This document shows positions 1 to 55,624 of a DNA stretch of 64,000 nt, one piece after another. How positions within the stretch are numbered: the first letter of the stretch is position 1; every line of letters begins with the position of its first letter. The stretch spans positions 66,092,001-66,156,000 of the forward strand of contig OX597818.1 of the NCBI GenBank assembly GCA_951406725.2, read 5' to 3'. A program made the translations under genes and the position numbers. Below the pieces are notes generated by a model. That model ran no database searches. It was not told where the DNA came from and worked only from the letters and a program-made list of their open reading frames with translations. This DNA comes from Octopus vulgaris. Lineage: Eukaryota.

Positions 1-244
1 TTTACAAATAACGCTAACTTTTCGAGCGATAAACAAAAATGAGCTCAAAAGAATATATATATACATATAAAATTATAAAATTCGAGGAAAAAACCTTACA
101 TCGAATCTTTGGTTAAAATACATATTGTCATTAATAAAGGAAATATAATTAATACATGGAAATTGAAATTAAAATGTTAAAATGCATTAAAATATTACAC
201 AACAGTACGTATTCATATTAAACTATACATATATACATCAGCAT

Positions 245-21673: not shown

Positions 21674-22227
21674 CAGATGTGAATGTGTTTACATACATAT
21701 ATATCGTTTGTGTTTACATATATCTATATATATATATATATGTCGTTTAGTAAAACAGAAGAGTTGTACGCAACATGGAATATGAGCTAGAAAGTTGGTG
21801 GGAGGAGGACATAATTGATAATATAAGCAGCAGCAGCAGTGTTATGGATTGATAATGGAGTCAGCCTGTTTAAGTTAAATTGAATTAACCAACGGTAGCA
21901 ACGTTTAAAAGTACAATTGTGATTTATGCCTAATTAATTAAAATATTTTACTGTTTTCTCAAAATGAAAATCCCCCATGGTAAACGTATGCTTCTCATTC
22001 TCGTGAATTTAATAAAAATAAATGGAGCACTTAACATAAAATAGATTTAATTTTACTGAGAGTATATCAAATATTAAATACATTTGCCTTAGTTCCAGTT
22101 GAAATGAAAGAATTTCCCATTAAAAAACGCACAATTGTTGTAAGAAAATATTCAATAATTAAGTTACAAAATTCACTGAATGAAACATAAATTGAAATAT
22201 AGTTGCATATTTAGATAAAATATCACC

Positions 22228-48127: not shown

Positions 48128-48549
48128 GCATATATTTCTTTACTACCCACAAGGGGCTAAACACAGAGAGGACAAACACGGACAGACAGACGGATTAAAT
48201 CGATTATATCGACCCCAGTGCGTAACTGGTACTTATGTAATCGAACCCGAAAGGATGAAAGGCAAAGTCGACCTCGGTGGAATTTGAACTCAGATCGTAG
48301 CGGCAGACGAAATGCCTATTTCTTTACTACCCACAAGGGGCTAAACACAGAGAGGGCAAACACGGACAGACAAACGGATTAAATCGATTATATCGACCCC
48401 AGTGCGTAACTGGTACTTATGTAATCGAATCCGAAAGGATGAAAGGCAAAGTCGACTTCGGTGGAATTTGAACTCAGAACGTAGCGGCAGACGAAATACG
48501 GCTACGCATTTCACCCGGCGTGCTAACGATTCTGCCAGCTCACCGCCTT
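48128..48549 (-). mobile_element. SINE family B with tandemly duplicated 3' part and 12-bp TSD
   Basis: Units are about 48133-48315 and 48317-48549. The TSD AGGAACCGAGCA lies at 48116-48127 and 48550-48561. The central GCCTTTCATCCTTTCGGxTTCGAT resembles the Meta/MESC-type SINE core, from recollection only. Confidence 0.85.
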
Positions 48550-54459: not shown

Positions 54460-54538
54460 TACATTATTTACTTTATTTACATTTCACGGATATTTGTCCA
54501 CATCATGTTTGTTGATTACACAACGTTTCGGCTGATAC

Positions 54539-54588
<50 letters not shown>

Positions 54589-54905
54589 ATTATTATTATT
54601 GTTGTTGTTGCTGTTGTTGTTCAGGTCACTGCCTGGAATCGAACTCGGATATCTTGGGTTAGTAACCCGCGCCCTTAGTCACTATTCCATATAGCCTTCC
54701 TTAAAAAAAAGATTTATAAGCCCTAAAAGTCATTCCGTAATTCCCCAGGGGCATATAGCGTAGTGGTAAAGAGCGCAGGCTACTAACCCCAAGATTCCGA
54801 GTTCGATTCCAGGTAGTAATAATGAAGGCTGGAGGGTATATCAGCCGAAACGTAATATTAAGAACAAACAGGAAGAGGACATATATCCGTCAAATGTTAA
54901 TATTA
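54460..54905. mobile_element. Inverted pair of composite units: tRNA-like head, (AAT)n, HHR/PLE-like tail
   Basis: The plus unit 54748-54905 has A box TAGCGTAGTGG, B box GTTCGATTCC, then AUGA-A-GGCUG..CAGCC-GAAAC-GUA. The minus unit 54460-54696 has the same head, an (AAT)n tract and the tail AUCAGCCGAAACGUUGUG...GGACAAAUAUCCGU. Confidence 0.7.
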
Positions 54906-55624
54906 TAAATAATTATTCGTCTCTTATATATACAACGCTAACATATTTATAATAAACACCACCTGTTGTTACTACTACAATACTGCTACAATACACATGT
55001 ATTGTTACTACTACAATACACATGCCGTGAGTAAAGGTGCAGATTTCTGTTGCTGAGTGAAGAAACTAAAATCAACAGACATATCACCGAGATAGAGCGA
55101 GTAACAACAAAACGCTAAAAGCATAGTAGTGTAGGAGGGTAAGTATTTCGGGATTAACATAGAGCGATTTTGAACAGCAATTCTCTTACGATGGGAAAAT
55201 AGCAAAAATTACGTTAAAAGGGAAATTTAAAATCAACCTCAAAAATTACAATTTGAAATATACTACATAAATGTTCTCTGGATTTCTATTCATGTGTAGC
55301 CATTTTGTGAAATGTTACCTACTTTTTTATCTGAAGCGTTTCGCTAAAGCAAAGTAACATTTAATGCGTATGATTTAATGAGGTGTAGAGCATTTTACCC
55401 ATTGTGTAAGGATGAATTTTACTCATCCATGGAACTAAAGAGCACAATTAAGAAGGAAGTAGGTGAAATGAGCACATGACCAATTAGAATTCCGGATATT
55501 TATTGTAGACAAGCATGAAAATACATTGACATAGGTTGGTTGGAAAGAAAAAGAATTCCTCAATAGATGGGTGGGTGAGTCATTGGAATATGAAGGCACA
55601 TTGCGATTTATATTTATATAGTAA

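Follow-up and report, generated by a model that had tools for sequence, protein, structure and literature searches.

Transcription of known Penelope-like elements (PLEs) starts within the pLTR, and both PLE promoters that have been studied experimentally are, according to the accessible parts of the reports, internal promoters of a LINE-like or intron-overlapping type (PMC2377424; PMC8557442). Poseidon_Ac from the green anole, a member of the Penelope/Poseidon clade, is described in the available portion of its report as having a single ORF with reverse transcriptase (RT) and C-terminal GIY-YIG domain, pLTRs in partial tandem, a hammerhead that overlaps the ORF start and two 3' ends about 30 nt apart, which represent the tail (PMC11167929), and its insertions can be two-armed and inverted (PMC11167929; PMC8557442). 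Reverse transcription of Poseidon_Ac starts inside the RNA at the pLTR 3' end, and extension from both strands was shown in vitro (PMC11167929). The mobile DNA known to carry Pol III promoters consists of non-coding passengers, namely SINEs, Sm-alpha and TRIMp3. In the excerpts available, Schistosoma's Sm-alpha and Sj-alpha elements carry a tRNA-related Pol III promoter followed by a hammerhead and reach high copy numbers (PMC6765202; PMC2770079), and the TRIMp3 elements Cassandra, Helenus, and Ajax have a Pol III promoter of small-RNA origin within their terminal repeat, which was proposed to make the template RNA and to have arisen when a SINE inserted into the repeat (PMC10886601). The locus described here combines traits of these systems and is best explained as a decayed two-armed pLTR insertion of an autonomous PLE, in which the tRNA-like start of the pLTR is probably an internal Pol III promoter for the whole element.

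Results

The window, which is the whole stretch of 64,000 nucleotides that was analysed, contains two units in head-to-head arrangement: 54692-54463 is the minus arm and 54710-54937 the plus arm. The initial annotation had reported two divergently oriented, related units at this place, and these exist: head compared with head is 82% identical and tail with tail 80%, and chance is not an explanation, as a 33-nt word from the head has 1,394 matches in the genome and a 40-nt intact hammerhead core has 1,165 exact matches, with 0 matches for the reversed controls. The plus arm is longer than had been reported, as it begins inside the end of a PLE ORF. Its first segment (54710-54742) consists of the final ORF codons, with the stop codon TAA at 54717-54719, and a 3' spacer, and is 88% identical to locus L004, in which a GIY-YIG-like coding end lies directly upstream of the head. 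The tRNA-like head follows (54743-54817, pLTR positions 1-75, with a predicted Pol III start near 54743), and it contains an A box (TAGCGTAGTGG, 54756-54766) and a B box (GTTCGATTCC, 54801-54810). Where an AAT tract had been proposed for both arms, the plus arm has no real tract and only a deletion junction, with family positions 76-167 gone. This deletion accounts for the hammerhead remnant (54822-54858, AUGA-A-GGCUG..CAGCC-GAAAC-GUA), which, as had been noted, lacks the first CUG (C3-U4-G5) and the 5' strand of stem I; the 3' strand of stem I is mutated and the ribozyme cannot form. The remainder (54859-54937) is the pLTR tail up to family position 283, the long-tail end, which in full copies codes for the 5' part of the ORF; over positions 168-283 the arm agrees with the family consensus at 99 of 116 sites.

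On the minus strand, the tRNA-like head (54692-54620, family positions 11-83) retains an intact B box (54644-54635) and has a damaged A box (TGGAATAGTGA), so that the claim of both boxes in each unit holds in full for the plus arm only. The proposed repeat tract is present in this arm, as an expanded (AAC/AAT)n stretch (54619-54538), and family positions ~111-184, comprising the ATG, stem I, CUGAUGA, and the 5' strand of stem II, are deleted. The arm closes with the 3' half of the hammerhead and the pLTR tail (54537-54463, family positions 185-259, 68 of 75 sites identical to the family consensus); its ribozyme is incomplete and it ends at the short-tail site. Between the arms lies a junction (54693-54709), of which 54705-54693 agrees with the ORF end on the minus strand at 11 of 13 sites, a match short enough to be due to chance.

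Both arms are about 85-92% identical to the consensus, their internal deletions differ, and they also differ in their 3' sites (283 versus ~259) and 5' sites (-32 versus +11), so that two independent cDNAs, primed from two nicked strands, fit better than one fold-back. The word spanning the deletion junction of the plus arm has 3 matches in the genome and adjoins a head only in the window; as this junction is private to the locus, the loss of CUG and stem I is decay and not design. The composite is not a subfamily, both ribozymes were broken by private deletions, and the locus is a dead copy. On the evidence of these alignments it is one old, decayed, two-armed insertion of the 283-nt pLTR of a PLE. 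The flanks share just AT-rich words of 5-6 nt and no clear target-site duplication. Assembled contigs of four runs contained the family for organisms A, C, D, and E, and for all of these except E also the flanks, and there was no empty-site joint among those listed for the locus. Rfam at gathering score and ARAGORN called nothing in the window. Elsewhere in the window, positions 48133-48497 hold a head-to-tail pair of a 184-nt unit, 97% identical to each other, which is an abundant interspersed repeat with further copies at ~17100, 55700, and 60300.

When the plus arm was used to search the genome (227 contigs, 2.8 Gb), 2,704 first-look candidates came up and 40 of these were scored. The number of arms was estimated at 22,000 to 100,000 after scaling by per-site identity. 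The median identity of 61 long matches to the consensus is 91%, which makes this an old family, and no intact copy was seen among them. Other copies are longer in the middle of the unit, in the order head, (AAT)n, a segment of ~55 nt, then hammerhead and tail. A script-built consensus gave a unit of 2,631 nt, made up of a 283-nt pLTR and a body, and the pLTR has the layout head, (AAT)n, ATG at position 131, minimal type I hammerhead at 160-205, and tail. One of nine stretches, L353, is a full-length pLTR-ORF-pLTR copy with heads at both ends and a body 91% identical to the consensus; L354 and L355 are partial tandems of the pLTR, and in L103, L107, L109, and L118 the series head-AAT-hammerhead-tail runs straight into the 5' end of the ORF. 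Of 30 loci anchored on the ORF end, 27 have a head match immediately 3' of it, with the PLE ORF directly upstream of the head. When 30 loci were anchored on the head, a set which still includes one duplicate pair and about four loci common to the tail set, head and hammerhead/tail were linked in 28 and one of the other two was linked to the ORF. Copies anchored on the hammerhead were two-armed in 56 of 90 cases. Their 3' ends fall into two clusters ~30 nt apart, at 245-264 (35/90) and 280-299 (48/90), with ends at about 253-259 or 283, which is the tail signature of PLEs. A search for a sister family without the head returned this family alone in 20 of 20 loci.

The consensus ORF of 825 amino acids is open, starts at pLTR position 131, has a minimum coverage of 14 and reads through the hammerhead into an RT and a GIY-YIG-like domain. 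The RT matches Pfam RVT_1 over the cut-off (E 6e-8). The C-terminus aligns with the Pfam GIY-YIG region of the protein P0066 (E 2e-13), and the ORF itself gave no direct Pfam GIY-YIG match. The PLE proteins P0019 (56% identical over 811 amino acids), P0076, and P0107, which belong to other organisms, have N-termini with the same hammerhead-encoded peptide TPD(D/E)G..PKR, and more distant PLE proteins start after this peptide; the closest outside homologues, compared as proteins, are 65-74% identical. The family shows the organization of an EN+ PLE, with a single ORF, flanking pLTRs in partial tandem, a hammerhead in the pLTR, an inverted arm, and an optional tail of 30-40 nt. Judged from its consensus, the element is a Penelope-like retrotransposon of the autonomous kind, whose pLTR comprises the head, the AAT tract, the hammerhead, and the tail. 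Between RT and EN there is no Cys/His finger, a feature that marks Neptune elements, and in this the ORF is unlike a second PLE of the window.

This second, unrelated PLE lies on the minus strand (12500-10050) and has degraded RT and GIY-YIG-like frames joined by a Cys-rich linker; we take it to be Neptune-like. It has a long simple-repeat 3' region and, at ~10158, a minimal hammerhead that looks intact; T runs are frequent on the sense strand of the element, and no tRNA head was seen. Its hammerhead family also occurs in L027, L058, and L199.

Although neither arm of the window has all parts of a minimal type I hammerhead (CUGANGA, GAAA, NUH, helices I and II, and a palindromic helix III), the family consensus has them, in the form ACAC-CUGAUGA-A-GGCUGG..UCAGCC-GAAAC-GUU-GUGU, so that CUGAUGA and stem I are restored. 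Inside the core the only frequent variant not attributable to CpG is at N7 (T in 38 and A in 23 of 62 copies). The predicted cut site is located 70 nt after the start codon in the consensus, and no read ends were piled up there in raw RNA reads of a related organism, which came from fragmented libraries. Minimal type I hammerheads of metazoan PLEs are, in the accessible part of their description, similar in having a helix I of 4-5 bp, an unpaired base before helix II, a G10.1-C11.1 pair, a palindromic ACGU replacing helix III, and many solo and opposite-strand pairs, whereas the schistosome motifs differ in that their helix II has 7-8 bp and not 6 bp as here, the triplet here being GUU (PMC4209133).

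In the consensus head, A box and B box are intact and at tRNA spacing, and every intact solo pLTR has both. The best tRNA match of the head is Arg(TCG), with a score of 21 and 70% identity (shuffles had a mean of 9.4 and 0 of 200 reached this score), the donor isotype being provisional as the comparison set held 35 distinct genomic sequences of few isotypes from 30 loci. The head of a SINE in L185 is closer (75%) than tRNA-Arg (70%). Among the copies the A and B boxes are not better conserved than the rest (0.91 and 0.95 versus 0.93-0.96). ARAGORN at cut-offs of 80 and above did not call the head a tRNA, and it no longer folds as one, the cloverleaf being lost; Rfam by E-value on eight family loci and one 301-nt copy gave repeat noise only and no tRNA or hammerhead match. 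None of 18 distant PLE 3' regions contained A plus B boxes, and 80 metagenome PLE loci gave no match to the head. Within the middle segment, a further tRNA-like piece was dropped as weak, since 8 of 200 shuffles reached its score. The SINE just mentioned (L185:2396-2333 and 1673-1736) is a different, common one, its head being 74-75% identical to that of the family, and is a candidate promoter donor; in addition, four tRNA-Arg(TCG)-like genes are clustered within 3 kb in L195:178-3013. The spacer after the ORF stop (54729-54766 in the window; family -13 to +24) repeats the first bases of the head in inverted and imperfect form, and from this arrangement it looks as if the head joined the PLE via a fold-back event.

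The 5' ends of the copies were analysed in the 90 hammerhead-anchored insertions, including in the totals 25 that start at the AAT tract and have no assignable 5' end. Forty-four reach position 15 or further, and with alignment positions fuzzy by ~5 nt, 34 of these stop between -12 and +15 and 10 continue into the ORF. The stop rate is 0.053 per nt at the head start versus 0.0022 per nt in the ORF, a difference of ~20-24-fold. Considering only arms that are not joined head to head, and after dropping five loci duplicating others, 35 of 53 end in -12..15, with rates of 0.055 versus 0.003. We read this main cluster as the probable 5' end of an RNA; as an RNA start inside the pLTR is usual for PLEs, the cluster alone does not name the polymerase.

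Pol III terminators include runs of four T (T4) and the degenerate patterns T3VT2 and T2VT3. The sense strand of the 2,631-nt unit contains none of the three, and the other strand has 29 T4 runs. By synonymous-codon permutation, T4 occurs 0 times in the ORF versus 2.9 expected (P 0.027), and the wider terminator set, to which the degenerate patterns (concept in the available text of PMC3141230) were added after the first T4 result, occurs 0 times versus 3.7 expected (P 0.010); runs of A, C, and G were unremarkable. Of 80 distant PLE loci, 20 have a frame of at least 400 amino acids; in these control ORFs the wider set gave 146 occurrences versus 145.6 expected, and 0 of 20 were terminator-free. 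The unit lacks G4 as well (P 0.033, base shuffle). T4 alone is absent in 4 of 40 distant PLE ORF spans of 1.2-2.0 kb, including L237 and L289; L259 appears T4-free in one comparison only by virtue of a short span, another comparison showing 5 runs. L237 and L289 represent a distant PLE family with a T4-free coding span of 2 kb, a very T-rich pLTR and no A/B boxes, and they are a partial counter-example to the T-run argument. The T-run evidence is modest and not strong, suggestive of Pol III, and independent of the 5'-end result.

Raw reads of three RNA runs from the related organism B were placed on L103. Repeat reads were equal on both strands, and depth was highest over tail and head and near zero over the 5' part of the ORF. 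Neither start nor end peaks were found in these reads on L103, and no intron-type joint was among the joints listed. This pattern fits passive read-through of old copies and is uninformative about the promoter.

Discussion

The initial annotation had offered two readings, a SINE mobilised by a PLE or a PLE whose pLTR acquired a Pol III promoter, and at the level of sequence the second is supported. From the structure observed in the copies we infer Pol III use, translation of the ORF, and ribozyme activity, and the following course may be envisaged. Pol III would start near pLTR +1 and, meeting no terminator, would be able to read through pLTR, ORF, and second pLTR. The PLE protein would begin reverse transcription inside this RNA, at the pLTR 3' end, and continue as far as the RNA 5' end; internal priming would yield mostly solo pLTR copies resembling SINEs, and priming from both nicked strands would yield two arms or inverted pairs. 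The hammerhead would cleave only as a dimer or with the help of protein, and cleavage would remove the start codon. In its most far-reaching form, this is an autonomous protein-coding PLE transcribed end to end by Pol III, which took a tRNA or SINE promoter into its pLTR, had terminators purged from its 2.6 kb coding strand and uses one RNA as message and template, giving tens of thousands of SINE-like solo repeats; we propose this tentatively, as a serious candidate that stops short of being probable. Pol III RNA without a cap makes a poor mRNA, and if an autonomous element does use Pol III, it must either have its 825-aa protein translated from a long Pol III RNA or keep message and template separate. 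Also counted against Pol III is the hairpin at the junction of ORF end and head, which is strong and could itself end or join cDNAs.

This hairpin is central to the explanation that comes next, according to which an ordinary PLE once captured a tRNA-derived SINE head in its 3' UTR and carries it as a passenger, with Pol II or read-through transcription, a pile-up of 5' ends caused by the hairpin or by a Pol II start, and a lack of T runs by chance. In stability the hairpin (-13.4 kcal/mol) ranks within the top 14 of 1,296 windows, a start of transcription inside the pLTR is also seen in known PLEs (PMC2377424; PMC8557442, in the parts available), the closer identity of the SINE head makes capture from a SINE plausible, and T4-free spans exist in distant PLEs. 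However, an RNA hairpin that stalls reverse transcription should stop the cDNA at its 3' base (~+24) and not at the apex near +1, where most ends are found; a smaller group does end near +24, as 14 of the 53 non-palindromic arms stop at 16-45, near the hairpin base. The pile-up is also seen in arms with unique flanks, 14 of 21 of which end in -12..15. Among the first 100 of 1,175 junction matches, counted by hand, 72 are perfect palindromes centred on the head start (8 of them second-strand matches of the same site), 27 are ORF-linked and 1 is mixed, and only 1 of 73 fold-back junctions keeps the ORF-side arm of the hairpin. With no control ORF free of the wider terminator set added to this, we consider the passenger explanation doubtful.

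A division of labour, in which the ORF is expressed from a Pol II RNA and the head drives short Pol III transcripts of solo pLTRs that the PLE protein mobilises in trans, would make the solo copies a true PLE-dependent SINE. It would agree with the excess of short head-started copies over ORF-linked ones (34 versus 10), with the boxes present in every intact solo pLTR and with the existence of non-autonomous PLE derivatives such as MRC1 (PMC8557442, as far as the accessible text goes). Yet nothing in the sequence of the short copies is peculiar to them, the ORF is flanked by the same pLTR, internal deletions vary from copy to copy, the window junction is private, and no distinct non-autonomous subfamily was found in the family; of the hallmarks of a tRNA-derived SINE there is a tRNA-related head with A and B boxes, and not a distinct non-autonomous element with subfamilies. 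Priming inside a full RNA, at its first pLTR, would account for solo copies without any SINE, the Poseidon_Ac template must according to the portion available include 172 nt of the ORF (PMC11167929), the corresponding point here lying ~20 nt beyond the end of a solo pLTR, and a T-run-free ORF would be left unexplained. Divided labour is therefore unlikely, and the separate SINE of the initial annotation gives way to the pLTR of an autonomous element. That an unrelated tRNA-SINE and a hammerhead repeat became nested by chance and were then locally inverted has a negligible probability, being refuted by the linkage of head with hammerhead and tail, by their fixed order between ORF end and ORF start, and by the high share of two-armed insertions.

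Under the reading of the head as a Pol III promoter of the PLE itself, SINE-like elements that join promoter and hammerhead, Sm-alpha being one, could originate as freed pLTRs. Some 10^4-10^5 SINE-like repeats of the genome are Penelope ends and should be annotated accordingly. In the literature searched, which lies outside Repbase, Dfam, subscription journals, and supplements, where such an element may be catalogued, no autonomous PLE with a tRNA-type promoter was found described. The view that the composite belongs to no described class stands to this extent and has to be modified insofar as the SINE-like Sm-alpha elements already join a Pol III promoter to a hammerhead (PMC6765202, from the available part of the text).

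The comparison with known systems, made on the accessible sections of the respective reports, places the element as follows. It shares with Poseidon_Ac the ORF, pLTR, hammerhead, tail, and inverted-arm features listed at the outset, and is unlike it in that the pLTR opens with a tRNA-like A/B-box segment and (AAT)n, the unit is without T4, the ATG precedes the entire hammerhead, and the cut site follows the start codon by 70 nt and not by 26 nt; in the accessible sections no promoter of this type is described for Poseidon_Ac (PMC11167929). Penelope of Drosophila virilis is similar in having an internal promoter and start site in the pLTR, with an upstream partial copy driving the downstream one, and its promoter is TATA-less and LINE-like with a 75-bp intron (PMC2377424), whereas here no intron-type joint was among those listed. 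Sm-alpha and Sj-alpha resemble the pLTR in promoter, hammerhead, and abundance; however, Sm-alpha is non-coding and tandem with a canonical hammerhead, whereas the unit described here is the terminal repeat of a protein-coding element (PMC6765202; PMC2770079), and in place of the traits of an Sm-alpha-type hammerhead SINE or non-LTR retrozyme we found coding linkage, a minimal hammerhead, and mostly solo copies or inverted pairs. TRIMp3 elements are alike in the position of the promoter inside a terminal repeat, but are short LTR elements that are non-autonomous and carry PBS, PPT, and TSDs, whereas this is an autonomous PLE with a 2.5-kb ORF (PMC10886601). In all but its promoter the element is a standard PLE, and the tRNA-type promoter motif on an autonomous PLE is its unusual part.
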